A DNA stretch of 64,000 bases from an uncultured Oscillospiraceae bacterium (GCA_964535505.1 CAZHUH010000001.1:125591-189590); one strand, 5' to 3'. Numbered from the stretch's first letter, positions 7,112-58,272 are shown. Notes: generated from the letters alone by a model not told the origin. Translations and numbers: made by a program.

Positions 7112-7267
7112 ACTACAACTCCCAAGATATTATACTAATAAAAAATCGGATATTTTCTTTTTAAAAAAAATTTCGAAAATTGCAATGGAAAATTGACGAT
7201 GAAATGCAACTTAAAAAAATTGTTTAATATCAAATTTATTCCTACGCAAGTTCACACCTCACAAGAA

Positions 7268-7289
7268 ACTATGTCTGAAATAATATTCT
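7268..7289 (+). repeat. REP-like intergenic element, copy 1 (short form)
   Basis: ACTATGTCTGAAATAATATTCT matches the family core ACTATGTCTGAAATAGTATTCTGC (motif written on the + strand). Confidence 0.75.
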
Positions 7290-10168: not shown

Positions 10169-11431
10169 CTAACCCTTGCGTCTCAAAACCGCCAAATAAA
10201 AACCTTGCATTCCGTCCTTGTAAGGCAAAAACTGATATTGGCTTTTGCCGTGCGTTTGCGGAAGCTCATCTATCGAAATTGTTCCTTCTTCAAAATTGTC
10301 GTGTTCTTTTAAGAATTTGCGAACATTTTGACCATTTTCGTTGTCGAAAATCGTGCAAGTGGAATACACCAACGTGCCGCCCACCTTCACATAGTTGGCG
10401 CAATTGCACAAAATTGTATATTGCACCTTCATCAAATCGGAAATATCCTTGTTTTCGCGGAAAAGTTTTATGTCGGGTCTATTGTCCAACACACCGAAAC
10501 CGCTGCACGGCACATCGCACAGAACAGTGTCAAAGGCTTGTTCCCATTGGCTATTGTAAATTGTCATATCGGCGCAATGCGTTTCTGTTTCCGTCTGCAT
10601 ACGCGCCGCATAGGAATTTATCAAATCCACACGATGTTGATGAATATCGCATGCCACCACCTTTACGTCGGGGCGCAACTGTTTTACGTAAACAGCCTTG
10701 CCGCCCGGTGCCGAACAGCAATCCAAAACGCTGTTTTGTGCACAATTTGCCACAGCTTTTGAAATTGCCATAGAGGACAAACTTTGCACTGTAAAACTGT
10801 CGTCAGGCTTCAACCATTTGCCGAAAACTTTGAAAGCATCGGCAAAGCATGTAGGCTCGGCATTGCCGAATTTGTCTTTTGCAAGGCAAATATCGCCATT
10901 TTTAAGTCTAACTATGTTACAATTTGTATTTTTATAAGATACTATGTCTAACATAGTGCTCTTTCCGTAGTCTTTTATTAATTTTTTCACTGCCCACAAC
11001 GGATAGGAATAAATCACCGAAACTCGTTCCGATTCGTCGGTCGGAAAGTCGTCAAAACTCTTTATAGACTGCGCAATGTGTTTCAATGTGGCATTTACAA
11101 AGCCAACCGTTCGTATGTCCCCTGTTATTTTTGCCAACTCAGCAAAATCGTTTACAACTGCGTAAACCGGCAAGGAAAGTTCCATCAAACAGTAAATTCC
11201 CATTTTCAAAATGATAAGCGCTTCTTTCTTGGGCATTTTGTGCACATACTTGCTTAAAATATAGGTAAGTTTTATGTCGTTGTCCAACACGCCGTACACT
11301 ACTTTCGTTATCAGTGCCTTATCCTGCATTTTGCACGAGCTCAATGTTCTGTTCAAAGTTATGGAAGAAAAGGCTTGTTCTTGGTAAATGCTTTGCAGCG
11401 TGGAAAAACTTTTCAAAAAAGCCGTGTTCAT
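10169..11431 (-). CDS. rsmB: 16S rRNA (cytosine967-C5)-methyltransferase
   Basis: NusB-like N-domain plus SAM MTase (DCCSAPGGK, DVPCSG). Start moved to ATG 11431, an ATGA overlap with the fmt stop. Confidence 0.9.
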   Translation of the reverse strand: MNTAFLKSFSTLQSIYQEQAFSSITLNRTLSSCKMQDKALITKVVYGVLDNDIKLTYILSKYVHKMPKKEALIILKMGIYCLMELSLPVYAVVNDFAELAKITGDIRTVGFVNATLKHIAQSIKSFDDFPTDESERVSVIYSYPLWAVKKLIKDYGKSTMLDIVSYKNTNCNIVRLKNGDICLAKDKFGNAEPTCFADAFKVFGKWLKPDDSFTVQSLSSMAISKAVANCAQNSVLDCCSAPGGKAVYVKQLRPDVKVVACDIHQHRVDLINSYAARMQTETETHCADMTIYNSQWEQAFDTVLCDVPCSGFGVLDNRPDIKLFRENKDISDLMKVQYTILCNCANYVKVGGTLVYSTCTIFDNENGQNVRKFLKEHDNFEEGTISIDELPQTHGKSQYQFLPYKDGMQGFYLAVLRRKG

Positions 11432-18562: not shown

Positions 18563-18591
18563 CAGTACCACACTTTGACCTTCCAAATAAT

Positions 18592-18640
18592 ATTATGTCT
18601 GAAATAGTATTATCCGATAAGGAAAAACTCAATATACTTT
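18592..18640 (+). repeat. REP-like intergenic element, copy 2 (long form), abutting the ligA stop
   Basis: ATTATGTCTGAAATAGTATTATCCGATAAGGAAAAACTCAATATACTTT. Core plus the distal ATATACTTT box, which ends at the ligA stop codon. Confidence 0.75.
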
Positions 18641-24020: not shown

Positions 24021-24641
24021 TTAGACAACAAAATGACAAAGCAACCGTTCTTGCACGCAAGTTTCTGCCTTCCCCAATGTATTTTCTGATACTATGTCTA
24101 AAATAGTATTCAACAAAATGCTAGGGAACAAGAATACTATGTTAACTTTGGCATCGTAAACCACCGATTCTTCTTTAGCAATGCATTGCAATGCCCTACG
24201 CAGGGGCTTCAACAGCGAATAATCCACCACGACAAGCAGGCGTACGCAATCGGTCATACGCAGTTTTTCGCACCGCTTCAAAACTTCGGCGCAACTGTCG
24301 CTGTAAGCACGTATAAGCCCACCGGCGCCTAATTTTACGCCGCCAAAGTAGCGAGTTACCACAACGCACAATCTGTCAAGCCCGTTGTTTTTGATACATT
24401 CGAAAATGGGCATGCCTGCAGTGCCTTGCGGTTCTCCGTCATCGCTGAATTTTGCTTTGTCGCCTACGATATAGCCATAGCAACTGTGCGTGGCGTCAAA
24501 ATATTGCTTGCGCTTGGTGTTCACAAAATTCATTGCCTCTTCTACACTTTCGGTATGAATTGCGGAAGCAATAAACCGAGATTTTTCAATCACGATTTCG
24601 CAAACAACTTCTTTTGAATCTATCGTAGTATATTCTTTCAT
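24021..24641 (-). CDS. yigZ: YigZ/IMPACT-family protein
   Basis: 206 aa. EKSRFIA...ATHSCYGY...DDGEPQGTAG signature. The last ~30 codons run through a REP-like element. Confidence 0.8.
   Translation of the reverse strand: MKEYTTIDSKEVVCEIVIEKSRFIASAIHTESVEEAMNFVNTKRKQYFDATHSCYGYIVGDKAKFSDDGEPQGTAGMPIFECIKNNGLDRLCVVVTRYFGGVKLGAGGLIRAYSDSCAEVLKRCEKLRMTDCVRLLVVVDYSLLKPLRRALQCIAKEESVVYDAKVNIVFLFPSILLNTILDIVSENTLGKAETCVQERLLCHFVV
24089..24140 (+). repeat. REP-like element, copy 3, inside the yigZ 3' coding end
   Basis: ATACTATGTCTAAAATAGTATTC at 24089-24111, with an inverted partner GAATACTAT at 24132-24140. Confidence 0.7.
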
Positions 24642-28456: not shown

Positions 28457-28525
28457 CGTTACTCCTTGTGTTTATTAAGAAATAGCCGCATTGCGCCTAA
28501 TGGAAGAAATTTCGTTTAACAGGCT

Positions 28526-28548
28526 ACTATGTCAGAAATAGTATACTG
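28526..28548 (+). repeat. REP-like intergenic element, copy 4 (short form)
   Basis: ACTATGTCAGAAATAGTATACTGC. Confidence 0.75.
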
Positions 28549-31360: not shown

Positions 31361-31406
31361 GCAAAAACTGCCTTTCAAAATATTTTTAAATAACGCCGGT
31401 TTTGTT

Positions 31407-31430
31407 TCTATGTCTGAAATAATATTCTGC
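31407..31430 (+). repeat. REP-like intergenic element, copy 5 (between convergent murG and cvpA)
   Basis: TCTATGTCTGAAATAATATTCTGC. Confidence 0.75.
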
Positions 31431-35296: not shown

Positions 35297-35308
35297 ATGC
35301 TTTTCTTA

Positions 35309-35384
35309 TGGTGGAGCTAAGGGGATTCGAACCCCTGGCCTTTTGACTGCCAGTCAAACGCGCTACCAACTGCGCCATAGCCCC
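35309..35384 (-). tRNA. tRNA-Ala (anticodon GGC), CCA encoded
   Basis: Hand-folded cloverleaf. Acceptor GGGGCUA/UAGCUCC with the G3:U70 Ala identity pair. Anticodon loop CUGGCAG. T-arm GGTTCGAATCC. Confidence 0.95.
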
Positions 35385-35455
35385 AAATTATTTTTGGGTT
35401 CGACATTTTGGCTGTATAACGTTACCAAACTGCGGCAAAATTCATTTGCAAATGT

Positions 35456-35484
35456 ATTATACAATAAAACCGTGTGTATGTCAA
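35456..35484 (-). promoter_or_regulatory. Consensus sigma-A promoter for tRNA-Ala
   Basis: Minus strand TTGACA-17 nt-TATAAT, about 65 nt upstream of the mature tRNA 5' end. Confidence 0.7.
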
Positions 35485-35536
35485 AGCAAATTTCGGTTTT
35501 CTTTAATGATTTTTTTATTGCGTATATTTTATAATG

Positions 35537-35570
35537 TCTTGCGAAAGATAATGATTTCGCAAGATTTTTT
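35537..35570 (+). terminator. Orphan plus-strand intrinsic terminator
   Basis: Perfect 10-bp stem TCTTGCGAAA/TTTCGCAAGA, 8-nt loop, then T6. No annotated plus-strand gene upstream. Confidence 0.6.
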
Positions 35571-35613
35571 ATCAAATCAAATCGTTGCAATGCTTTTTGA
35601 CATTTTCTTGATT

Positions 35614-35941
35614 TTATATTCTTTGCAAATGAGAATACTCAAAACGCACAAGCGGAAAGGCGATTGCATACATTTTCAGCCGTACTGTGCCCAAATTACC
35701 CGCCGTTAAAGCCCTTAGCCGCACTCGCCACACCCCACCCACACCGCCTGCGGAATTTTCAGCCGCCTCATCGGCAAATGCCTGCACGGCGGTTACTCCC
35801 GAAAGTTCATCCGCGCTTTTTGACGCCTGTTTTATTCCCTCGCCGCCTAAACTTTCAAGCATTGAGCGAACCTCCGAATGTATTTTGCCGCCCGATGCGC
35901 CGCCGAACCGGTAGCAGAGCGAGAATGAAAAGAAGTCGCAT
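35614..35941 (-). pseudogene. Frameshifted small ORF of unknown family with an apparently intact promoter and SD
   Basis: AAGGAG-8 nt-ATG at 35941 opens MRLLFILALLPV... and stops after 28 codons. The adjacent frame continues ...GGASGGKIHSEVRSMLESLGGEGIKQASKSADELSGVTAVQAFADEAAENSAGGVGG... to 35614. TTGAAT-16 nt-TAATAT lies upstream. The stretch is locally GC-rich. Confidence 0.3.
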
Positions 35942-36426
35942 AAATTTTACTCCTTGCATATTTCGATATTATCAGTATATACAAGTAATTCAATGAAAGT
36001 TTTTAAAAGTTATTCGCAAGAAGTCCCCAAAGCGGCAGCTCTACGGAAAACAACGCCAATAGGAACTTGAACAATGGCGTAAACGGCAGTTCAGAAAGCA
36101 AAAAAGCGGAATGATTTCCGCGGTGGAAATGGGCTTAAATTTTGTCGCGGGCGATAAACGGTAAAAGCGAAGGACAGATTTTGAACACAATCATTGCCGA
36201 AGCGGAGCACAGAAAGCGCACGGAAACGCTTACTAACACAGATTTAGACAATTTTACAACAGTCTTCAACCGCTAGACGGATTTAAGCAAAAAACCTAAA
36301 GAAATGATAACCACATTGAAACAAATTATATTACCCGAAAGCGGCACCATGCAAATTCACGGCACCGCTTCCAAGCGTATTAAAAATCAGAAGAATTGAA
36401 ACAAATAAGCAAATACTCAAAAGAAA

Positions 36427-37356
36427 TTAATCGGCAAACAACGGCGTTGAAAGATATCTGTCACCCGTGTCGGGAAGCACAACCACGATGTTTTTGCCAA
36501 TGTTTTCGGGGCGTTTGGCAAGTTCTGTCGCCGCCCACAGCGCCGCGCCCGATGAAATGCCCACAAGGAAGCCCTCTACCCTGCCAAGCTCTTTGCCCGT
36601 GGCAAAAGCCGCCTCGTTTTCAACGGTTATAATTTCGTCGTAGATCTTTGTATCGAGCACGTCTGGCACAAAACCTGCGCCTATGCCCTGTATTTTATGC
36701 GTGCCCGCAACGCCCGTTGAAAGCACAGCGGAAGTGGCCGGTTCCACAGCTACTATCTTAACATTGGGGTTTTTCCCCTTCAAATACTGCCCCGCACCAG
36801 TAATGGTACCGCCCGTTCCAACCCCTGCAACGAAAATATCAACCTTGCCTTCGGTATCCTCCCAAATTTCGGGACCCGTAGTGGCAAAATGCGCGGCGGG
36901 GTTTGCGGGATTGACAAACTGCCCTATAATTATACTACCTTCTATTTCGGCTTTGAGTTCTTCGGCTTTGGCAATAGCGCCCTTCATGCCCTTCGCACCA
37001 TCAGTAAGCACAATCTGTGCGCCGTATGCTTTGATAAGGCTGCGGCGTTCCACGCTCATCGTTTCAGGCATAGTGAGAATGACTTTATACCCCTTTGCCG
37101 CCGCAATAGCCGCAAGACCTATACCCGTATTGCCGGACGTAGGCTCTATGATGGTTGCTCCCGCTTTAAGCTTGCCGCTTTTTTCCGCATCCTCAATCAT
37201 GGCTTTTGCGATTCTGTCCTTGACGGAACCCGCAGGGTTGAAGTATTCCAATTTTGCCAATACTTTGGCTTTGAGGTTGTGTTTATTTTCGTAATTTGTT
37301 AATTCAAGAAGGGGTGTTTTACCCACAAGCTCTGTTATTGATTTATATACAGGCAT
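36427..37356 (-). CDS. cysK: Cysteine synthase A (O-acetylserine sulfhydrylase)
   Basis: 309 aa. PLP-lysine region NPAGSVKDR and GTGGT loop. Full-length CysK pattern. Confidence 0.95.
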
Positions 37357-37418
37357 TTTATTATTCTCCTTTTGACGTCATTTTATTTTTTTTTGAATTT
37401 TTATAGCGTAATTTGGCT

Positions 37419-37472
37419 TCAGATTCGTACACGCATTCGTATTTTGGAACAACATCGGAAATCTAATTTCAT
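37419..37472 (-). CDS. Candidate 17-aa leader peptide with tandem Cys codons in the cysK 5' UTR
   Basis: GGAGG-6 nt-ATG. ATG AAA TTA GAT TTC CGA TGT TGT TCC AAA ATA CGA ATG CGT GTA CGA ATC TGA translates to MKLDFRCCSKIRMRVRI. Confidence 0.35.
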   Translation of the reverse strand: MKLDFRCCSKIRMRVRI

Positions 37473-37523
37473 AGAACACCTCCGCCATTTATTATTGATA
37501 CTTTTTTATTTTTGTTTTATCCG

Positions 37524-37540
37524 TAATCCCTATCGGATTA
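37524..37540. promoter_or_regulatory. Inverted repeat TAATCC-N5-GGATTA at about +4 to +20 of the cysK promoter
   Basis: TAATCCCTATCGGATTA lies just downstream of the -10. The half ATAGGGATTA resembles the 3' part of the B. subtilis CymR box as I remember it. Confidence 0.4.
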
Positions 37541-37550
37541 GTATGGTATC

Positions 37551-37579
37551 ATAATACCGACTTATTATACGTTTGTCAA
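37551..37579 (-). promoter_or_regulatory. Sigma-A promoter of cysK
   Basis: Minus strand TTGACA-17 nt-TATTAT, leaving a ~190-nt 5' UTR. Confidence 0.65.
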
Positions 37580-37618
37580 GCAAAATAGAAACTTTTTTTA
37601 AATTTTTTTACAGAACAA

Positions 37619-37661
37619 ACCGCCGTTCTATGCATGTTTAAAACACGCAAAGCGCGGCGGT
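37619..37661 (-). terminator. Terminator-like hairpin after the Rrf2 gene
   Basis: GC-rich stem ACCGCCG/CGGCGGT enclosing an inner hairpin. The downstream U-tract (TTGTTCTGT) is weak. Confidence 0.4.
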
Positions 37662-37676
37662 ATCATTATATTAATA

Positions 37677-38105
37677 TTAAATACTGTAAAAATCCGCCGA
37701 ATCGGGGGTAGAGTCCACAAGATCCTGCAACGTTATGCCGTCAAGATAGTTATTAACACATTCGTTAAGCCCTTGCCAAAGCTTGCGCGTTGCGCAACCC
37801 GCACCATGCGGACAGTGGCTTGACGGATTGCAATCCACAAGCGAAATATCGCCTTCGGTTTTACGCAAAATCTCACCGACGGTGATATCCTGTGGTTTTT
37901 TCAGAAGTTCGTACCCGCCCTGCGAACCGCGAACGCTCCTTAACAAACCGCACCTAACAAGATTGCCCGTTATCTGCTCGGTATATTTTGCCGTTATGCC
38001 CTGACGCGAGGAAATGTCCGCTATCCTAACGGGAGTGCTTCCGCCATGCTGTGCAATATCGATCAAAATCCAAACACTGTATCTGCCTTTTGTAGAAATT
38101 TTCAT
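37677..38105 (-). CDS. Rrf2-family transcriptional regulator with three clustered Cys (IscR/CymR-like)
   Basis: 142 aa. N-terminal wHTH (MKISTKGRYSVWILIDIA) and C-x6-C-x5-C cluster (VDCNPSSHCPHGAGC), suggesting Fe-S ligation. Confidence 0.9.
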   Translation of the reverse strand: MKISTKGRYSVWILIDIAQHGGSTPVRIADISSRQGITAKYTEQITGNLVRCGLLRSVRGSQGGYELLKKPQDITVGEILRKTEGDISLVDCNPSSHCPHGAGCATRKLWQGLNECVNNYLDGITLQDLVDSTPDSADFYSI

Positions 38106-38160
38106 AAATTGTAACCCACCGTTAGAAAACTCAGTATACTATATCGTTACTACATATTAA

Positions 38161-38189
38161 ATTATAATACTATGTGCGGATATTGTCAA
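38161..38189 (-). promoter_or_regulatory. Consensus sigma-A promoter of the Rrf2 gene
   Basis: Minus strand TTGACA-17 nt-TATAAT, about 50 nt upstream of the ATG. Confidence 0.7.
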
Positions 38190-38350
38190 GCTCGCACCGC
38201 AGCCTTTAGGTGCTCGGGCGGGCGTTCTTAAATTATTTGTCATGCGCTCGCCACCATTTTTAGCGCGCTTAAGAAAACTGCATCTGTTTGTACCTTGACA
38301 GATTCTCCTCTGTTCAAACTAGATAGTCCCCACCATTTTGATTTGTCCTA

Positions 38351-38545
38351 TTCTTTGAATTAACCGTTAAAATTAGTCTGCTATATTAAATTGTTATTAG
38401 TTACTATGTCTGAAATAGTATTCTGCCCTAACAGGATTTTAGATATACTTTGACTGTCTTATGATATAAAAACATCACAAATAACCTTCTCGTCATTTTC
38501 ACACATCGTTGCCAATGCTGTTAGAAAGTACATCATTTTTTTGTT
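38351..38545 (+). repeat. Long direct repeat, left copy (REP-like long form, copy 6, plus relic of an SDR gene 3' end)
   Basis: 38351-38488 is ~85-90% identical by eye to 43211-43354 and includes the core ACTATGTCTGAAATAGTATTCTGC at 38403-38426. 38478-38545 is colinear (~60% by eye) with the last ~20 codons of the SDR gene at 43344. Confidence 0.75.
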
Positions 38546-38558
38546 TACAACTCTACTG

Positions 38559-39740
38559 CTATTTTTCATGTTGCAAGTGAACCGAGCAAAGAATCGTCAC
38601 AAAGTTTATTGCCAACAACACCAAAAAAGAAATGAATATTGAAAATAAATCGAAGTTGAATCCAAATTTTACCCCGGCAATAAGCGCAGAAAAGTCGCAA
38701 AGCGCATTGGCGAAAACAGCCGACACACCAATAGATAAGACAAACGACACTACGGATAGCACGAGATATTCCATAACAAAAACTACGAACAGTTGCTTTT
38801 TCTCCAAGCCAAATGCCCGAACTGCCGTTACAAATTTTTGTTTTTTGTTGAGATAATTGCTTATTATAACAAATTGTATTACAGAATAGACAATGCCCAC
38901 CACTACAAAGATCAAAATCAACACGTTTTGCATAAAGTGAGCTATTTTTTCCAATTCCTCTATACCCCAATTTGTAATTGTATTTGGCATCACGTTTTCT
39001 TCACCGTAATGTTCGATAAGCATTTTTTGCACATTATCGATGTTTTCTTTATTTACAAAGACTTCAAGCATATCGCTGTTCGCATTTGCGTCCAAAAGCA
39101 AAAAGCAAGAATAACCTCCGATTTTATTCAAACTATCAAGTGCCGTTATTTTGGTCAGTTCAGACGCAAAAACTCCTACAACAGTTGCTTTTTCTATATA
39201 GTAGCTGTTAAAAACAGGTTCAAAAACATCAATGGTTTTGCCTAACAAAACAGAGTAGTCGTAAATTTGCAAACTGTCGACAAAATCCGAAGCAAGCAAT
39301 ATTTCATTGTCCGACTGCGACAATCGTCCGGCAAGTATCAGCTTTGTGTCGCTTATTTGTTCAAATTCCTGCAGATAAGCTTGGGGCAGCAACGCCGAAC
39401 AACTCTCCCCCTTTACAACGGCAACATTAGTCTGAAACGTACCTACCTCCTCGATAGACACATTTCCCGATAGGTAAAAAATTTTGTTCATCGGCGCAAC
39501 CTCGTTCACAAACTGAAACTGCTCAATTGAGGAAATTTCCGTCTTGTCTGCACGAACAAATACCGAATTGCCACTACTGCGGCTGTTGAGAAGTTGTGAA
39601 ATGGATTTTTGTACAGAGGCAGAAAACATTGCGGCAGTCAGCACCACAAAAGAAAGTGCAAAAATCATAAAGCTTCGTCCCAATGCGTTCATCCAATAAC
39701 AACGCAAGTTTTGCATAGCTAACTTAAAAGAGGTTTTCAT
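38559..39740 (-). CDS. FtsX/MacB-type ABC permease subunit B
   Basis: 393 aa. TM1, ~220-aa extracytoplasmic domain, then 3 C-terminal TMs. 4-nt overlap with the upstream permease gene. Confidence 0.8.
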   Translation of the reverse strand: MKTSFKLAMQNLRCYWMNALGRSFMIFALSFVVLTAAMFSASVQKSISQLLNSRSSGNSVFVRADKTEISSIEQFQFVNEVAPMNKIFYLSGNVSIEEVGTFQTNVAVVKGESCSALLPQAYLQEFEQISDTKLILAGRLSQSDNEILLASDFVDSLQIYDYSVLLGKTIDVFEPVFNSYYIEKATVVGVFASELTKITALDSLNKIGGYSCFLLLDANANSDMLEVFVNKENIDNVQKMLIEHYGEENVMPNTITNWGIEELEKIAHFMQNVLILIFVVVGIVYSVIQFVIISNYLNKKQKFVTAVRAFGLEKKQLFVVFVMEYLVLSVVSFVLSIGVSAVFANALCDFSALIAGVKFGFNFDLFSIFISFLVLLAINFVTILCSVHLQHEK

Positions 39741-40810
39741 TTGTTATCAACCCCCATCACCTTATTCCTACCGAAAATAGATATTGTCGCGGCAACGACG
39801 AGTATTATCAAGCAACACACAAATTCCAAACAAAACACAAGAAAAATGTTGTGTGAATAATATACAACACCCAAGATATTTTCCGCCCACGTTGTTATCA
39901 AATAGTTTATTCCCAAACTCGCAACCGACGCCAAAACACAGGCAATAAAACCGACAATGGCGAATATAACACATATTTCGCCTACCAATGCGGCTTTTGA
40001 ACTTCCCAAGAGACGTATAACACGCAAAACGTTCTCTCTTTTGATAAAATAAACATTTATCAACCCTATCAAAAGTGCCACAAACAATACTTCCAAGATA
40101 ACTACAATGACGTCTAATCCAACAAGAAAGCTTTTGTAGCCACGGCAAAATGACAAAAGCCCTTCTTCATCGTCTAAAAGATCTTGCGGCAATTCCGACA
40201 GTCGCAAAAGTTGTTCGGCATCTGTTGCCGTTACAAAAAAAGAACCGCTGTACACACTATGTGGCGTGCGATATATCAAAAATGAAACATTTCCTGCGAT
40301 ACAATCTGGCAAATCACTCGGCGAAAAGGTCCCCACAACGCTAAGCGTTTCTTCGTTCAATGTAATATCGTCGCCCACTTGGCATTCAATTAAAGCGGCA
40401 AGTTCATCCGCAAGCCAAATTGCGTGCTCATTCTTGGAAAAAGTTTCGCCAGATGTTGCTCTCGGTAAAACATCTACTTTGTCGCATACAAAAAACACGC
40501 AAACTCCGCCGACATAACTCGGAAAATTTTGCGCGTTGTCATTGTGCACTATTTTTGTATTGTACGTTAAGCCGTCAATTCTACCATACACAAAAAAATC
40601 CTCTAAATTCGTGCTCAACAGTGCATTATTTTCGCTTTTAAGCACAACAAATGAATCTTTTTGGAATTTGTCGGAATATGCCGCAGGAAGTTGAAAAACA
40701 AGATTGCCCAAAACCGCAATAATGGACAGGAGCACGGAAAGACTCAAAATCGACAGTGCAAAAAATACTGCGTTTGTTTTAAATTCTTTTATGGCAATGC
40801 GCGACAACAT
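39737..40810 (-). CDS. FtsX/MacB-type ABC permease subunit A
   Basis: Same architecture as subunit B. Start moved to ATG 40810 (MLSRIAIKEF), adjacent to the ATPase stop. Confidence 0.8.
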   Translation of the reverse strand: MLSRIAIKEFKTNAVFFALSILSLSVLLSIIAVLGNLVFQLPAAYSDKFQKDSFVVLKSENNALLSTNLEDFFVYGRIDGLTYNTKIVHNDNAQNFPSYVGGVCVFFVCDKVDVLPRATSGETFSKNEHAIWLADELAALIECQVGDDITLNEETLSVVGTFSPSDLPDCIAGNVSFLIYRTPHSVYSGSFFVTATDAEQLLRLSELPQDLLDDEEGLLSFCRGYKSFLVGLDVIVVILEVLFVALLIGLINVYFIKRENVLRVIRLLGSSKAALVGEICVIFAIVGFIACVLASVASLGINYLITTWAENILGVVYYSHNIFLVFCLEFVCCLIILVVAATISIFGRNKVMGVDNK

Positions 40811-40811
40811 A

Positions 40812-41459
40812 TCAAACAATCCTTCCGTCCAACAACTCAATAACTTTATCAGGTTTTGTAACATCCTGTGGCTGATGCGTCACCAAAACGACTGTGGTTC
40901 CGCTATTTTTTACTGAATACAACAGGTTTATAACCGCTTCACTGTTTTGTTTGTCCAAATTGCCGCATGGCTCGTCGGCAAAAATAATTTGCGGTTTATT
41001 CACAAGTGCGCGAGCAACACCTACTCTTTGCTGTTCTCCTCCCGAAAGAATCTCCGTTCGCTTGTTCAAAAGGCTTGAAATTCCAACAAATGCCGCTACC
41101 TCGCGAACACGGCTCTTGCGCTTTGCTGTGCTATCTCCCTTAATCAGCATAGGCAATTCGATATTTTCAAAAGCCGTGTACTTAGGCTCCAATGCGTAGG
41201 ATTGAAAAATGAAGCCGATTTTTTGGTTCCGAAAACAACACTTTTCCGATTCCGTCATTTGGTAAATATTTTTTCCGTCAATCAGCACTTCGCCGGAACT
41301 GGGCAAAAGCAACCCACACATACATTTGAGCAAGGTGCTTTTTCCACTGCCGCTACGCCCGGTGACAACTATAAACTCTCCGTTGTCTACCTCAAAGTTA
41401 ATATCGTTCAGCGCTACGCAATTTTCATATTTTTTTGTAAGATTTATTACTTCAATCAT
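40812..41459 (-). CDS. ABC ATP-binding protein (MacB/LolD/FtsE-like)
   Basis: 215 aa. Walker A GRSGSGKST, signature LSGGEQQR, Walker B IFADEP. Confidence 0.9.
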   Translation of the reverse strand: MIEVINLTKKYENCVALNDINFEVDNGEFIVVTGRSGSGKSTLLKCMCGLLLPSSGEVLIDGKNIYQMTESEKCCFRNQKIGFIFQSYALEPKYTAFENIELPMLIKGDSTAKRKSRVREVAAFVGISSLLNKRTEILSGGEQQRVGVARALVNKPQIIFADEPCGNLDKQNSEAVINLLYSVKNSGTTVVLVTHQPQDVTKPDKVIELLDGRIV

Positions 41460-42472
41460 CTTTCAGACAATGTATATTTTACAAGTAGGTCGCCCAATGC
41501 TGTTGTTTCGGAAACAACGTATTCATGCTTTACGTAATGCGTCGACAAATCGTCCTCAAATTCGAAATAAATTTCTTGCGTAATACTATCTAGTTTTAAA
41601 TCTTTTGGAACAAGCAATGCAATCAACTTGCTATGTTTTGTTTCGTTTGAATAAAGGTAATGATTCGAACGTATTATGGTAATTTTCACTGCGTCATTCG
41701 TTGCTGTGGCAACACAGTTCTCGAAATCGGACGACGGCAACCTTATCAACATCAATGCATATTGTTCAAAAACTTCTTCGCCATACATATTCAGGTTTAA
41801 ATAAACATACGACTGTTCGCTCAAAACACCATCGTTTTGAAAAAATGCCAAGATGCCTGCTTTCGAATCTATTTTGAAAACAACAGGATTTGGTTGATCT
41901 TCAAACAAATAATATTCGTTATTGTCCGTTATGTATGAAAATTGTTGGCTTTCGTGAACTATCGCGTCCAACATCACAACCTCAACTTTAAACTCGGAAA
42001 TGTCTGTTTGTGTTTCTACAAAACAGCCGTATGTCGTTGGCTGTTCTGTGATTTTGGCTACTCTTTTCACGGGCAACAACGAAACGGTGCACAAATTCGA
42101 ATCGAATTTTACATTTGCCACCGTAAAATCTATGTTCTTTTCAGCATTGTTAAATTTAATTGCAATCAAATCACGCGTTTCGAAAAACACCGAAGAATAA
42201 CGTTCTTCTTTTGCCGTCTTTTGCGAAATAAAGTTGTAATCTGCCAAATTAGACTTTGAAAAGGCGGCATAATCGCAATATTTCTCAATCGAATATGAGT
42301 CTGCTATTTCTTCATATGCTAATTCGACGACATAACTTCCTTGAACTTGCGGAATCCATTCATTTTCCTTGTCGCAGGCTCCCAATGCAAATACGGCCGT
42401 TATTGCGATTAATAGTACGACCAAAACAACATCGATTCTTTTTACAAAGTTTTTATTCATAATTCTCACCAA
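41456..42472 (-). CDS. Lipoprotein of unknown function
   Basis: Lipobox FALGAC after a hydrophobic segment. No family recognised. Start may be ATG 42460 (MNKNF). 4-nt overlap with the ATPase gene. Confidence 0.7.
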   Translation of the reverse strand: MVRIMNKNFVKRIDVVLVVLLIAITAVFALGACDKENEWIPQVQGSYVVELAYEEIADSYSIEKYCDYAAFSKSNLADYNFISQKTAKEERYSSVFFETRDLIAIKFNNAEKNIDFTVANVKFDSNLCTVSLLPVKRVAKITEQPTTYGCFVETQTDISEFKVEVVMLDAIVHESQQFSYITDNNEYYLFEDQPNPVVFKIDSKAGILAFFQNDGVLSEQSYVYLNLNMYGEEVFEQYALMLIRLPSSDFENCVATATNDAVKITIIRSNHYLYSNETKHSKLIALLVPKDLKLDSITQEIYFEFEDDLSTHYVKHEYVVSETTALGDLLVKYTLSER

Positions 42473-42519
42473 TATCTATAATTTAATGTTGTGTAACGAA
42501 GAGCACCAATAAACAAAGA

Positions 42520-42939
42520 CTATTTGCTTTTTGCAAACCATATTTGGCTATTTCCGTAATATGTTAGGTGAATATCGTATGTTTCTAAATTGTCTGCAAA
42601 CGAGCCGGAAAAGTTAGCTGTACCCTTCACCGATGATGACAATGATTCTACATACGCCTGAAATTCAAACGACTTATCCGAGAAGTAAGTAAAAGAAACG
42701 GGATCCCAACAAACCAACTCGGCGCTAATAGTAACATCGCCGACCACACATTGCGGCAAAAGCAACAGTTCGGTAGAAACAGTCGTATTAGTAACAATTA
42801 AGTTACCATACTGCCCGCTGCCGTATGTACCGGTATATTTGTCAGGCAACGGCGACTCACTTGATTCACAAGCGACCAAAGATAATACAGTCACAAAAAG
42901 AAACAAAGAAACCAACAACAAGAATTTAACTTTTTTCAT
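42520..42939 (-). CDS. Small lipoprotein of unknown function
   Basis: 139 aa. Signal peptide plus lipobox SLVAC. GGAGG SD. First gene of the cassette. Confidence 0.7.
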   Translation of the reverse strand: MKKVKFLLLVSLFLFVTVLSLVACESSESPLPDKYTGTYGSGQYGNLIVTNTTVSTELLLLPQCVVGDVTISAELVCWDPVSFTYFSDKSFEFQAYVESLSSSVKGTANFSGSFADNLETYDIHLTYYGNSQIWFAKSK

Positions 42940-42966
42940 AGCAAGCCTCCTAATTTTGATATTTGT

Positions 42967-42995
42967 ATTGTAGCAAAGTTTTTATACAATTTCAA
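42967..42995 (-). promoter_or_regulatory. Sigma-A promoter of the lipoprotein/ABC cassette
   Basis: Minus strand TTGAAA-17 nt-(TGc)TACAAT with an extended -10, about 20 nt upstream of the SD. Confidence 0.65.
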
Positions 42996-43210
42996 TAGTA
43001 TTTTATAATTAACTTGCAACTTTTTACTAAAATTTAAGAGAAGAGACGAAAAAAATATATAAATGCGTGACTTTTGTGAATATTTGAAGAGGCGTGCATA
43101 AATTTTACCAATCTTTTTTAAGTAAAAAAAGAAAAAATATGTATAACACAACGCAAGACAACACGGCGTATCCTTTTGAAAAACCCCACTACCGAAAAGC
43201 CAATTCGTTG

Positions 43211-43405
43211 GTTTAAGCGGTTTCTTTGAATTAAGCGTCAAAAATAGTCTGACATAAAATCGTTATTAGTTGCTATGTCTGAAATAGTATTCTGCAATAA
43301 CAGAATTTTGGATATACTTTGACGGTCTTGTGACATAAAAACATCACAAATAACTCTTTATCATCTCTTCACAACGCCTCCAAAGTGCGTCTGAAATGGC
43401 ACCAT
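43211..43405 (+). repeat. Long direct repeat, right copy (REP-like long form, copy 7, overlapping the intact SDR 3' end)
   Basis: Partner of 38351-38545. Core GCTATGTCTGAAATAGTATTCTGC at 43272-43295. Internal 10-nt direct repeat TGACATAAAA at ~43248 and ~43331. Confidence 0.75.
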
Positions 43406-44189
43406 TTTTGTCACGGAACTTTATCTTATATTTCTTTTTGAAAGTATAAGTTTCGCCGCAAACAAAATCGACGTTAGGTTTTGCCAAAGCAAAGTACACC
43501 ATTCGTTTTGCGCTGCGTTTTTTGGATATCGTAAACAAATATTTTATAGGCGAGTGGTAGGCAAAGCGCAAAAATTTTGTAGATTCGCAAGCAAAGTTTG
43601 TGCGCGGAATTCCCGGTTGAAATGCCACTGCGCAAATGCCTTGTTCAGCAAAGCGTTTGTGCAATTGGCGCGTAAGCAAAATGCCGCACAGTTTCGCTCT
43701 GCCATAGGCTTTAAGCGGCGAAAAATCCTTTTCGTTTTGCAAATCGTCAACCGAGAAGTCTTTTCCAAACAAATTGGCGGCAATGCTGGCAGTTTGCACC
43801 ACGGTTGCGTTGCATTCGCAAAGTGTCTTGGTCAGCAAATAAGTCAACAAAAAGGGCGACAAAACATTCACTTGGAACGTTTGTTCAAATCCGTCTACCG
43901 TCAATTTGCGTTTGTCCATTGCTGCGCCGGCGTTGTTTATCAAAACGTCGATTTGAGCATAACGTTGCAATTCGTTTGCCAAACGCACCACATCTGACAG
44001 TTTTGCGTAATCGGCAACGTGAAAAGGTACGCCCAATTCGCGTGCAATCTTTTCCGTTTTTTGCGGATTGCGCCCCACAATCACCACGTTGTGACCTTGC
44101 GCCGTCAATTCTCGTGCAGTCACGGCGCCTATGCCATCGCTCGCACCGGTTATTACAATAGTTTTCTTTGTCTCGTTAGTTTTTTGCAT
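43344..44189 (-). CDS. Short-chain dehydrogenase/reductase (SDR) family oxidoreductase
   Basis: 281 aa. TGASDGIG cofactor motif, NNAG, and a YxxxK-like YGRAK. Confidence 0.9.
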   Translation of the reverse strand: MQKTNETKKTIVITGASDGIGAVTARELTAQGHNVVIVGRNPQKTEKIARELGVPFHVADYAKLSDVVRLANELQRYAQIDVLINNAGAAMDKRKLTVDGFEQTFQVNVLSPFLLTYLLTKTLCECNATVVQTASIAANLFGKDFSVDDLQNEKDFSPLKAYGRAKLCGILLTRQLHKRFAEQGICAVAFQPGIPRTNFACESTKFLRFAYHSPIKYLFTISKKRSAKRMVYFALAKPNVDFVCGETYTFKKKYKIKFRDKNGAISDALWRRCEEMIKSYL

Positions 44190-44252
44190 GTTTTCTTAGC
44201 AACCGACATTATGCGAAGCGACTGAGCCGATACCAAGCCGATTCTGTTTAAC

Positions 44253-44281
44253 AAAAAAGCCCAAAGCGCAATTCGCCTTGG
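44253..44281 (-). terminator. Intrinsic terminator after the tRNA cluster
   Basis: Minus strand CCAAGGCG-AATTG-CGCTTTGG (one mismatch) followed by GCTTTTTTGTT. Confidence 0.6.
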
Positions 44282-44285
44282 ACCT

Positions 44286-44371
44286 TGGTGGGAGGAGATG
44301 GATTCGAACCATCGAAGTCGACGGACGACAGATTTACAGTCTGTTCCCTTTGGCCACTCGGGAATCCTCCC
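44286..44371 (-). tRNA. tRNA-Tyr (GTA), long variable arm, CCA encoded
   Basis: 86 nt. Anticodon loop CTGTAAA. Class II variable arm. T-arm GGTTCGAATCC. Confidence 0.93.
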
Positions 44372-44409
44372 ATATATGAATATACTGTGATGTAGCCCGA
44401 ATAAAAAAA

Positions 44410-44486
44410 TGGAGCTGGTGAACGGAATCGAACCATCAACCTATTGATTACAAATCAATTGCTCTGCCTGATTGAGCTACACCAGC
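44410..44486 (-). tRNA. tRNA-Thr (TGT), CCA encoded
   Basis: Acceptor GCTGGTG/CACCAGC. Anticodon stem ATTGA/TCAAT with loop TTTGTAA. Confidence 0.92.
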
Positions 44487-44514
44487 ACAAAATTTGTTGT
44501 TGACGCCAATGAAA

Positions 44515-44590
44515 TGGTGCTTCGGGGCGGAATCGAACCACCGACACGGGGATTTTCAGTCCCCTGCTCTACCTACTGAGCTACCGAAGC
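44515..44590 (-). tRNA. tRNA-Phe (GAA), CCA encoded
   Basis: 76 nt. GCTTCGGTAGCTCAGTAGGTAGAGC... with anticodon loop CTGAAAA. Confidence 0.95.
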
Positions 44591-44597
44591 AAAACAT

Positions 44598-44674
44598 TGG
44601 CGACCCGGATGGGGCTCGAACCCACGACCTCCAGCGTGACAGGCTGGCGTACTAACCAACTGTACTACCGGGCC
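44598..44674 (-). tRNA. tRNA-Asp (GTC), CCA encoded
   Basis: 77 nt. GGCCCGGTAGTACAGTTGGTTAGTAC... with anticodon loop CTGTCAC. Confidence 0.95.
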
Positions 44675-44695
44675 AAATGTAATTTGTTTTGCGTT

Positions 44696-44771
44696 TGGTG
44701 GGCCTTCAGGGACTTGAACCCCGGACCGATCGGTTATGAGCCGACTGCTCTAACCACTGAGCTAAAGGCCC
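44696..44771 (-). tRNA. tRNA with CAT anticodon, most like tRNA-Ile2 (lysidine) rather than Met
   Basis: GGGCCTTTAGCTCAGTGGTTAGAGCAGTCGGCTCATAACCG... closely resembles the B. subtilis tRNA-Ile(CAU) body as I remember it. This is not initiator-like. Confidence 0.8.
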
Positions 44772-44783
44772 AAATTATTCCTG

Positions 44784-44860
44784 TGGTCGGGGTGGCGAGA
44801 CTCGAACTCACGACATCTTGCTCCCAAAGCAAGCGCGCTACCAAACTGCGCTACACCCCG
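44784..44860 (-). tRNA. tRNA-Pro (TGG), CCA encoded
   Basis: 77 nt. CGGGGTG acceptor. Anticodon stem CTTGC/GCAAG with loop TTTGGGA. Confidence 0.93.
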
Positions 44861-50456: not shown

Positions 50457-50477
50457 AAAATTTGCTATATTTATGAT

Positions 50478-50525
50478 ATTATGTTAAAAATAGTATTCTG
50501 CGTTATTGAAAATCCCGATATACTT
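50478..50525 (+). repeat. REP-like intergenic element, copy 8 (long form), abutting the spoIVA stop
   Basis: ATTATGTTAAAAATAGTATTCTGCGTTATTGAAAATCCCGATATACTT. Confidence 0.7.
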
Positions 50526-58226: not shown

Positions 58227-58248
58227 AATATTATGCGTGTAATAGTAT
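58227..58248 (+). repeat. Degenerate REP-like element, copy 9
   Basis: ATATTATGCGTGTAATAGTATT keeps the ATTAT/ATAGTAT arms but has a diverged spacer. Confidence 0.45.
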
Positions 58249-58272
58249 TTTATAAAACGACGATTTCTGACA

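Follow-up and report, generated by a model that had tools for sequence, protein, structure and literature searches.

Direct repeats carrying a gene end around an ABC/lipoprotein operon in the genome of an uncultured clostridial bacterium

Background

How does a transporter operon come to lie between two copies of the end of a neighbouring gene when no recombinase accompanies it? The question is raised by a 64,000-nt stretch of the genome of an uncultured Oscillospiraceae bacterium (GCA_964535505.1, CAZHUH010000001.1:125591-189590), referred to here as the window, with positions counted from its first letter. Between positions 38351 and 43405 five minus-strand genes, encoding an ATP-binding cassette (ABC) transporter and two lipoproteins, follow an intact gene for an oxidoreductase of the SDR family; this operon (the cassette) is bracketed by direct repeats, and the right-hand copy includes the end of the SDR gene. 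The answer we favour, to which we give a probability of roughly 55%, is that the SDR end was copied as a segment to form the left repeat, which represents the junction scar of a lineage-specific, recombinase-free remodelling of the interval between SDR and tRNA-Ala/PadR. Scars of this kind are an ordinary, well-documented form of rearrangement in variable stretches of chromosome. The cassette offers a useful, if unsurprising, example of an accessory transporter operon fixed in the chromosome with no mobility gene, leaving two probable gene-end relics. A dispersed motif of about 50 nt, which lies at the centre of both repeats, is treated separately below.

The direct repeats

The repeats were located by a repeat search and by blastn. 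The former gave two pairs of segments, 38385-38485 with 43254-43354 (101 nt, 90% identity) and 38351-38385 with 43222-43256 (35 nt, 86%), separated by an indel of 2 nt. These were merged by blastn into a single alignment of 38351-38540 with 43222-43409 (192 columns, 80.2% identity, E 9e-41). The tight part of the left repeat covers 38351-38485 (135 nt) and that of the right repeat 43222-43354 (133 nt), both on the minus strand; 118 of 132 positions are identical, ie about 89%. A first-pass annotation, made by eye, had proposed direct repeats of about 135 nt at 85-90% identity, and the formal alignment bears it out, except that the right copy starts at 43222 and not, as was then thought, at 43211. 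In gene orientation the right copy consists of the last three SDR codons and the stop, a 9-bp hairpin, a copy of the motif and a distal part of 50 nt ending in ...TTAATTCAAAGAA. The overlap with the last codons of the intact gene (...RRCEEMIKSYL and stop) can be read directly in it, as the annotation had noted. In the left copy the motif is at 38402-38450. The distal boundary at ...TTAATTCAAAGAA is sharp, as an extension anchored at 38351/43222 and directed outwards scores 0, and the longest identical run between the copies is 23 nt, exactly the conserved block of the motif.

A chance repeat is ruled out by the blastn E value, and an assembly artefact by the recovery of the same structure elsewhere. 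An independent Logan contig of 9 kb (L001) is 100% identical over 35308-44353, and a second strain, 98.2-98.4% identical, has both junction-proximal parts, namely the junction of FtsX and relic and the SDR end (L026, L034). The species has thus been sampled as two strains, with the structure in both, in two independent assemblies. Inspection of the sequence revealed no terminal inverted repeats or target duplications at 38351/38485 or 43222/43354, and the R'' and R' core sites of integrons (RYYYAAC ... GTTRRRY) are absent at the repeat boundaries.

Beyond 38485 and 43354, ie towards the interior of the SDR gene, similarity fades but continues for about 93 nt, to about 38578 and 43445 respectively. 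The extension anchored at that edge, which draws on the SDR coding end at 43355-43445 (minus strand), has a score of 11 across 91-93 nt. One of 1500 shuffles and one of 1500 random position pairs did as well; when the left segment was set against the 3' ends of 48 other genes, in 288 comparisons, no score exceeded 8. With the repeats formally aligned, as the first-pass annotation had advised, similarity beyond its 'REP-like' core therefore exceeds background in the anchored tests. The left segment reads ...ALATMCENDEK, a frameshift, then GYL and a stop, and the SDR gene ...DALWRRCEEMIKSYL and a stop. At a minimum the left copy holds the last three SDR codons and the stop; the segment at 38486-38578 on the minus strand is probably, at p about 1e-3 in the anchored tests, a decayed and frameshifted relic of the last 30 or so codons (37 of 68 positions identical to the SDR end), and it is present in the second strain. 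The annotation had described just such a colinear, frameshifted relic and had placed its end at the stop codon of the FtsX permease gene. Such a relic is probable, and the FtsX stop codon (38559-38561) falls inside it, as it extends to about 38578.

The transporter operon

The cassette has its own promoter, TTGAAA-17-TGcTACAAT at 42967-42995 on the minus strand (10 of 12 matches, with the upstream TG present), followed by the ribosome-binding site AGGAGG; the promoter had been predicted correctly. The first gene (42520-42939; this and the following four are all on the minus strand) encodes a small lipoprotein of 139 amino acids (aa) with the lipobox LVAC, without a Pfam or NCBIfam match. A lipoprotein of 338 aa comes next (41456-42472), whose true start is probably a few codons inside the open reading frame (ORF). 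The third gene (40812-41459) encodes an ABC ATPase of 215 aa of the FtsE/LolD/MacB type (Pfam ABC_tran 9e-36); its best NCBIfam models are FtsE, LolD and MacB-like, with FtsE at 4e-63 and LolD at 5e-61, both below the models' cut-offs. It shares the operon with two permeases of the FtsX fold. Permease 1 is a 375-aa ORF (39737-40864) with a Pfam FtsX match at 0.0015, below the cut-off, and gene callers place its start later, giving 357 aa. Permease 2 has 393 aa (38559-39740) and a Pfam FtsX match at 6e-11, above the cut-off. Neither lipoprotein could be assigned to a family.

Homologous operons with the same gene order were found in two other metagenomic genomes, on L032 (516-6070) and L033 (10001-13916), in unrelated neighbourhoods. 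The 139-aa lipoprotein is 48.6% identical to the first gene of the L032 operon, and the 338-aa lipoprotein 49% and 44% identical to its counterparts in L032 and L033 respectively. Permease 1 is 32% identical to a 358-aa gene product of L033, and permease 2 is 41% identical over residues 1-393 to one of 396 aa. Permease 2 is thus full length by comparison with L033, with its stop codon inside the SDR-end relic, and this puts the junction with SDR-derived sequence at the extreme end of the ORF. A promoter is recognisable in the L032 operon, which also has a canonical terminator; in the window no canonical terminator was found after FtsX. The motif is absent behind the last gene in both L032 and L033. 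Wider protein searches gave no homologue of permease 2 outside the species (word-indexed search of 5.8e9 proteins) and 35 representative relatives of the 338-aa lipoprotein, the best non-self match at 46% (exhaustive HMMER search of 1.84e9 proteins). The 338-aa lipoprotein had no match among plasmids, nor the left repeat among phages. The 136-aa lipoprotein of the sister species described below was considered as a homologue of the 139-aa protein and rejected, the match being limited to the signal peptide and first residues.

The cassette is therefore a self-contained accessory operon that occupies different locations in different genomes and appears to be absent from the sister species. As judged by domain content, it most likely encodes an exporter or extractor of the MacB mechanotransmission type with lipoprotein partners. 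Like the type VII systems MacB, LolCDE and FtsEX, it combines a LolD/FtsE-like ATPase with two FtsX-fold permeases, as in LolC/LolE, and with lipoproteins; unlike them, its permeases are very divergent (the Pfam FtsX values above) and its lipoproteins belong to no family.

Base composition agrees with the first-pass impression that the cassette is richer in AT than its flanks. Its genes have 36.4-42.4% GC, compared to 44.3 ± 2.5% for 45 other genes, and rank 1, 3, 5, 6 and 13 of 50 (rank-sum z about -3.2, by hand arithmetic); GC3 is also low. Domain searches of the genes from 30.3 to 52 kb detected no recombinase or transposase domain, again as the annotation had it.

Relatives and the search for an empty site

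On the minus strand the gene order is: six tRNA genes, SDR, the right repeat, the cassette promoter, the five cassette genes (42939 to 38559), the left repeat, Rrf2, cysK, tRNA-Ala, PadR and a HAAS-domain protein, so that tRNA genes lie on both sides of the locus. The SDR gene (43344-44189, minus strand, 281 aa, Pfam adh_short 2e-29) is intact, and its final codons and stop are within the right repeat. Its closest orthologue, 87% identical in protein and 84% in nucleotide sequence, is in a sister species (L002) sampled on about ten contigs. In L002 homology comprises the SDR gene and the motif and runs through 43273, after which the genes are unrelated: a 136-aa lipoprotein, flavodoxin/Fer4, GrpB, a methyltransferase and a 130-aa protein, followed by tRNA-Ala and PadR/HAAS. 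None of the five genes between motif and tRNA-Ala has a match in the window, and neither the cassette nor Rrf2-cysK is present at the sister-species locus. The interval that holds the cassette thus differs completely between the two species.

Rrf2 (CymR/IscR-like, 37677-38105) and cysK (36427-37356), both on the minus strand, are preceded by a perfect TTGACA-17-TATAAT promoter (38161-38189, minus strand), and synteny with relatives of this block holds from 38232 downwards. In three relatives the Rrf2 orthologues (92%, 83% and 77% identical) are each preceded by an intact cysteine desulfurase gene, with Se_S_carrier and HhH-GPD beyond. Directly upstream of the Rrf2 promoter in the window is a probable relic of that gene, 42 nt at 38240-38281 (minus strand) with the last 13 codons and the stop (AVFLSALKMVASA compared to EVFLNVVKKVAGVGK, each followed by a stop), colinear with the gene ends in L021, L022 and L024 (blastn 76% over 34 nt, E 0.05). 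It is set 69 nt beyond the left repeat. The 69-nt spacer (38282-38350, minus strand) contains a weak hairpin and a T-run (ATCTGT..ACAGAT GCAGTTTTCTT) and has no match in the window or at any locus compared. As the desulfurase gene is intact before Rrf2-cysK in the three relatives, the block was cut out of, or copied from, that context, and by comparison of gene order its adjacency to the SDR locus is derived.

An empty site, with SDR directly before Rrf2, had been suggested in the first-pass annotation as the natural check on a simple insertion. The junction string for such a site, from repeat end to spacer, would be ...TTAATTCAAAGAA joined to TAGGACAAATC. No relative has this arrangement: L002 has other genes behind SDR, and three relatives have the desulfurase before Rrf2-cysK. 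Given the missing empty site and the derived position of Rrf2-cysK, the stretch from SDR to tRNA-Ala has gone through several rounds of remodelling. The earlier proposal of an insertion or segmental duplication that copied the SDR end consequently survives in part. The copy of the SDR end, the atypical operon and the lack of a recombinase are upheld, and a single clean insertion between SDR and Rrf2 gives way to remodelling in several steps.

How the copy may have arisen

We infer both the order of events and the mechanism of joining. The accessory operon would have lodged directly behind the conserved element that follows the SDR gene, keeping its sigma-A-type promoter and losing its terminator. 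The last 95 nt or so of SDR, together with about 135 nt after its stop, would have been copied to form the left repeat. At its 3' side the operon would have been joined within a few codons of the FtsX stop, the join being made to, or filled by, the copy of the SDR end. Such a join could result from an insertion with a long target duplication, from Campbell-type integration of a circle by a single crossover, or from template switching during break repair. The Rrf2-cysK block would have been joined alongside, at a break inside the 3' end of the cysteine desulfurase gene.

The two copies have not diverged evenly. Over the coding end and its relic, left and right agree at 37 of 68 positions (54%), with 21 left-specific and six right-specific changes, and the right copy is 74% and the left 51% identical to the sister species. 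From stop codon to motif the agreement is 75 of 83 (90%), each copy being 79% identical to the sister species. In the distal 50 nt it is 43 of 49 (88%), and here each copy matches the sister species at 42-43%, ie is unalignable. Between the two strains the relic differs by about 5% (five differences in about 97 nt, counted by reading the sequences) compared to 1.6-1.8% for genes, so sequence change in the relic is close to neutral. Were the same true of the 135 nt, the ancestor common to the two copies would have to be several times younger than the relic. The mosaic could possibly reflect constraint on the whole 135 nt in both copies, later homogenisation, or two superimposed events.

In a different account, which we regard as unlikely, the cassette already stood behind SDR and FtsX had a motif copy of its own. 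A break close to that copy would later have been repaired from the SDR-adjacent one, by a patch or gene conversion that ran into the flanks and took in the SDR end on one side and the distal 50 nt on the other; the repeats would then not mark the boundaries of the cassette insertion. Because the motif usually lies 24-90 nt past the stops of co-oriented genes, a copy behind FtsX is to be expected, and the longest identical run of 23 nt is exactly the motif block. The 135 nt at 88-90%, set beside the relic at 54%, suggest a more recent homogenisation of at least those 135 nt, and a repeat copy with a 69-nt orphan spacer between two large blocks follows the pattern of template switching. However, one such event would make the relic as young as the rest, so that the mosaic needs a second step here too; a conversion tract would not normally extend about 95 and 50 nt into flanks that lack homology, and the cassette homologues of L032 and L033 have no motif behind the last gene.

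Several points weigh against a segmental copy formed during remodelling. An unanchored search aligns the relic with the SDR end at 63.6% over 88 nt, not better than the best shuffled matches, and for that reason the relic is probable and not certain. The operon of L033 is also AT-richer than its flanks (32.8 versus 38.6% GC), so that low GC, although it fits acquisition, is weak evidence when taken alone and may be a property of the operon family that does not point to recent transfer. No empty site or intermediate was found, and the order of events was not observed; the sister-species locus was covered over about 9 kb and the other relatives as short contigs. Finally, the mosaic (54% versus 88-90%) is not what one duplication followed by neutral decay predicts, and the tract at 88-90% includes the distal 50 nt, for which the sister species shows no conservation. 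The scheme above has to be supplemented with selection on all 135 nt or with later homogenisation.

Comparison with known rearrangements

Gene ends are also duplicated by site-specific integration, and the locus could be a decayed integrative islet that entered at an attachment (att) site overlapping the SDR 3' end, supplied a replacement gene end, displaced the original one, which then decayed, and has since lost its integrase. Imperfect direct repeats with a gene 3' end do flank a compositionally atypical block, and tRNA genes flank the locus. In its last 60 nt the SDR gene has 72% identity with the sister species, compared to 88-92% upstream, as a replaced end would look, and the 7-7-7 layout of the motif block (ATACTAT TTCAGAC ATAGTAT) resembles the core sites of tyrosine recombinases, a resemblance only. 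On the other hand neither the block nor about 8 kb around it contains an integrase, excisionase or mobility gene, phage and plasmid comparisons gave nothing similar, and all that is carried is one operon of housekeeping type. Illegitimate joins did occur at this locus, as the neighbouring Rrf2 block and the gene-end relic beside it show, and poorer conservation of a C-terminus is common without replacement. With neither a recombinase nor an empty site, the locus fails the test that defines an integrase-mediated island, and we consider the islet quite improbable.

Lambdoid phage 21 and prophage e14 reportedly integrate at the 3' end of icd in Escherichia coli and leave a displaced icd fragment behind. 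As at those sites, the insert here is flanked by an imperfect repeat of a gene 3' end, with one copy intact and the other left over. Unlike phage 21 and e14, it lacks an integrase, phage genes and a recognisable att core, its repeat takes in a further 135 nt or so of non-coding sequence, and the neighbouring block has its own, unrelated gene-end relic.

Duplicated gene ends are known to flank islets at icd and at tRNA genes, and also occur beside polymorphic loci as orphan rhs/cdi tips. The present locus resembles such arrays of displaced gene ends in that modules are lodged beside a conserved anchor without a dedicated recombinase, with remnants of earlier gene ends and with one end homologous and the other illegitimate. 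It differs from them in that its anchor is the SDR end plus an intergenic motif, its cargo is a transporter operon instead of toxin and immunity genes, and one displaced end is present. Sequential displacement of type VI secretion system effector modules in Vibrio cholerae is among the subjects of one report (PMC5361080). Another deals, in part, with homology-facilitated illegitimate recombination (PMC3240628).

There is a superficial likeness to the attC sites of integrons, such as the Vibrio cholerae repeats, and to the pdif modules of Acinetobacter plasmids, where cassettes lie between sites of about 30-130 nt in fixed orientation. In contrast to those systems, no integron integrase was found at the locus and its boundaries have no GTTRRRY/RYYYAAC cores; its cargo is a five-gene operon with its own promoter, and the other copies of the motif follow syntenic housekeeping genes.

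The dispersed motif

The central element of the repeats belongs to a family. In gene orientation its consensus is AAnTATrTC, 16 nt, then (G)CAGAATACTATTTYAGACATAGTA, or as a search pattern AAnTATrTC-N16-GCAGAATACTATTTYAGACATAGTA. The spacing is fixed and the information resides almost wholly in a 23-nt block. On the minus strand the block is AGAATACTATTTYAGACATAGTA, with the weaker box 26 nt upstream. The copy in the right repeat (43271-43319, minus strand) has AAGTATATC as box 1, 16 nt, and GCAGAATACTATTTCAGACATAGCA, and L002 and L008 have a copy in the same place behind the SDR stop. A 21-mer from the repeat centre occurs eight times in the window at no more than three mismatches, against an expectation of zero, always on the plus strand. 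A wider scan gave nine good copies in one orientation, at 7267-7289, 18591-18613, 24090-24112, 28525-28547, 31406-31428, 38402-38424, 43271-43293, 50477-50499 and 58229-58251, and a doubtful tenth in the same orientation at 10940-10962. The left and right repeats share 135 nt with each other; the other copies share with them only the core of about 50 nt, and no further copy longer than this was found in the window or at any locus compared.

In 185,579 species-representative genomes the strict pattern has 12 loci, ten of them in related uncultured Clostridia, with only one to four hits per related genome. A scan of JGI metagenomes added one further true relative, and two viral contigs also matched the pattern. 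In two metagenomic contigs, L028 (1144-1165) and L029 (4119-4140) (Ga0193731_1016815 and Ga0193733_1001727), an exact 22-nt block match lies in a GC-rich, unrelated context that is identical in both, and may be due to chance or to an unrelated element.

Some sites are orthologous. The copy at 50477-50499, between spoIVA and a convergent sigma-factor operon, has its counterpart in L018, whose genes share about 72% DNA identity with those of the window; the copy at 58229-58251 is matched in L011, and L002 and L008 carry the motif directly after their SDR orthologues. The block usually starts 24-90 nt past the stop of a co-oriented gene, and the preceding genes are functionally unrelated: rpe, ligA, a RarA/MgsA-like ATPase, cvpA, spoIVA, a PRC-barrel protein and SDR. 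The motif is on the G-rich strand in 13 of 13 sources. In the present data this bias is confounded with gene orientation, although in L014 the genes on both sides run antisense to the motif. In a UPF0029 (YigZ-like) ORF (24021-24641, minus strand) a copy is read through near the 3' end (..LLNTILDIVSENTLGKAE..), where the motif either evolved inside the gene end or replaced it.

The block contains a 7-7-7 palindrome, ATACTAT TTCAGAC ATAGTAT, whose 7-bp arms pair in 88% of cells with no compensatory changes; conservation is therefore of sequence. Neither this palindrome nor a longer helix between box 1 and block did better than shuffles. A structured RNA was rejected, both candidate helices lacking covariation and single-sequence folds not being consistently better than shuffles. 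Of Rfam 15 families only tRNAs reach gathering scores in the window, the best E in 38250-38600 being about 3. A motif-encoded peptide is likewise dismissed, as frames are not conserved and an ATG-started ORF of 16-23 codons is present in four of 22 copies. At least five of 22 copies face a convergent gene and the next co-oriented start is 13 to 435 nt away, so that the motif is not a promoter for downstream genes; nor is it in fixed association with intrinsic terminators, which lie downstream within 170 nt in five of 22 copies and upstream in three or four. Promoters for sigma E, F, G and K, the Spo0A box, dif/Xer, RTP Ter and the ARG box were compared by eye with consensus sequences, and their spacings or key bases do not fit. 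A literature search with four 15-mer forms of the core (both strands, C/T variants) returned no matching paper.

The first-pass annotation had called the core a REP-like element. Repetitive extragenic palindromes (REP) and their BIME arrays, which are associated with RAYT transposases, and miniature inverted-repeat transposable elements (MITEs) such as Correia, RUP and BOX, are short, dispersed extragenic repeats with a palindromic core. The motif resembles them in its short length, dispersal and frequent position just after genes, and in the palindromic layout of its core; as for copy number, 9-10 copies in 64 kb, one of them inside the 3' end of an ORF, stand beside the one to four strict hits per related genome noted above. 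It departs from them in being conserved in sequence without compensation and in having single, one-oriented copies on the G-rich strand, some of them orthologous across genera. There are also no inverted terminal repeats or target duplications, and no RAYT or other transposase was seen, a RAYT gene being absent from the scanned window genes (64 kb of the genome). It is thus not a classical REP element. The further suggestion that the core was itself the recombination substrate is unlikely to hold. The duplicated tract reaches past the core by about 95 nt on one side and about 50 nt on the other, and recombination between motifs would have left unrelated flanks, so it did not create the repeat; moreover the longest identical run, 23 nt, is short for homologous exchange.

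The family does invite one more account of the repeats, namely two independent insertions, behind SDR and behind FtsX, of a non-autonomous mobile element of about 135 nt, a long form of MITE or REP type, with the relic a product of chance. The core family is dispersed, with 9-10 copies in 64 kb in one orientation on the G-rich strand, a bias that single-strand transposition of the HUH type gives, and the 3' end of an ORF holds one of the copies. But no other copy in the window or at any locus shares more than the core of about 50 nt. The stretch from stop to motif is orthologous in the sister species (79%) and hence resident sequence, not an insert. The left copy also has the last codons and stop of SDR, with colinear similarity beyond (p about 1e-3), and the boundaries lack terminal inverted repeats and target duplications. 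We find this account barely credible.

We read the motif as a site whose recognition depends on sequence, probably by a protein, and whose function is polar. That it is specifically the recognition site of a site-specific or single-strand recombinase of the tyrosine or HUH type, marking exchange points behind genes in this clade of uncultured Clostridia, or of a factor acting at the ends of transcription units, is a suggestion we hold to be highly improbable as it stands. Were the recombinase version true, the bracketed ABC operon and the break in synteny after the SDR copy in the sister species would be exchange products. Candidate roles for the motif are in ending transcription units, in chromosome polarity and in recombination, and the family is a more novel item than the scar beside the cassette.

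Other observations

The last 60 nt of the SDR gene correspond to 43344-43403, and the better conserved part compared with them in L002 is the preceding 300 nt; the drop may be due to weaker constraint on the C-terminus or to replacement of the gene end.

The tRNA cluster at 44286-44860, and tRNA-Ala with its promoter at 35309-35493, are inverted in L002 (1-399 and 6116-6304, respectively) relative to SDR and PadR. Two local inversions flank the variable interval; SDR and PadR keep their orientation. Between cysK and tRNA-Ala, the segment at 35773-36327 has 51-54% aa similarity to two small unannotated genes after cysK in L024, so that synteny continues downstream of cysK, possibly as degraded genes.

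The host is an uncultured, spore-forming member of the Clostridia. Most genes of the window are on the minus strand, which is the G-rich strand, and they include those for SpoIVA and a SpoIIAB/sigma-F-like pair. The closest public relatives are metagenome-assembled genomes named 'uncultured Clostridia bacterium', 'Oscillospiraceae bacterium' and 'Candidatus Fimimonas merdipullorum'. The last of these is placed, as Candidatus Fimimonas, under Myxococcaceae in the NCBI taxonomy. Its contig DVOC01000064.1 (L018) is syntenic with the region of the window that encodes SpoIVA and the SpoIIAB/sigma-F-like pair, which suggests that it belongs to an endospore-forming lineage of Clostridia and that the placement under Myxococcaceae looks wrong.

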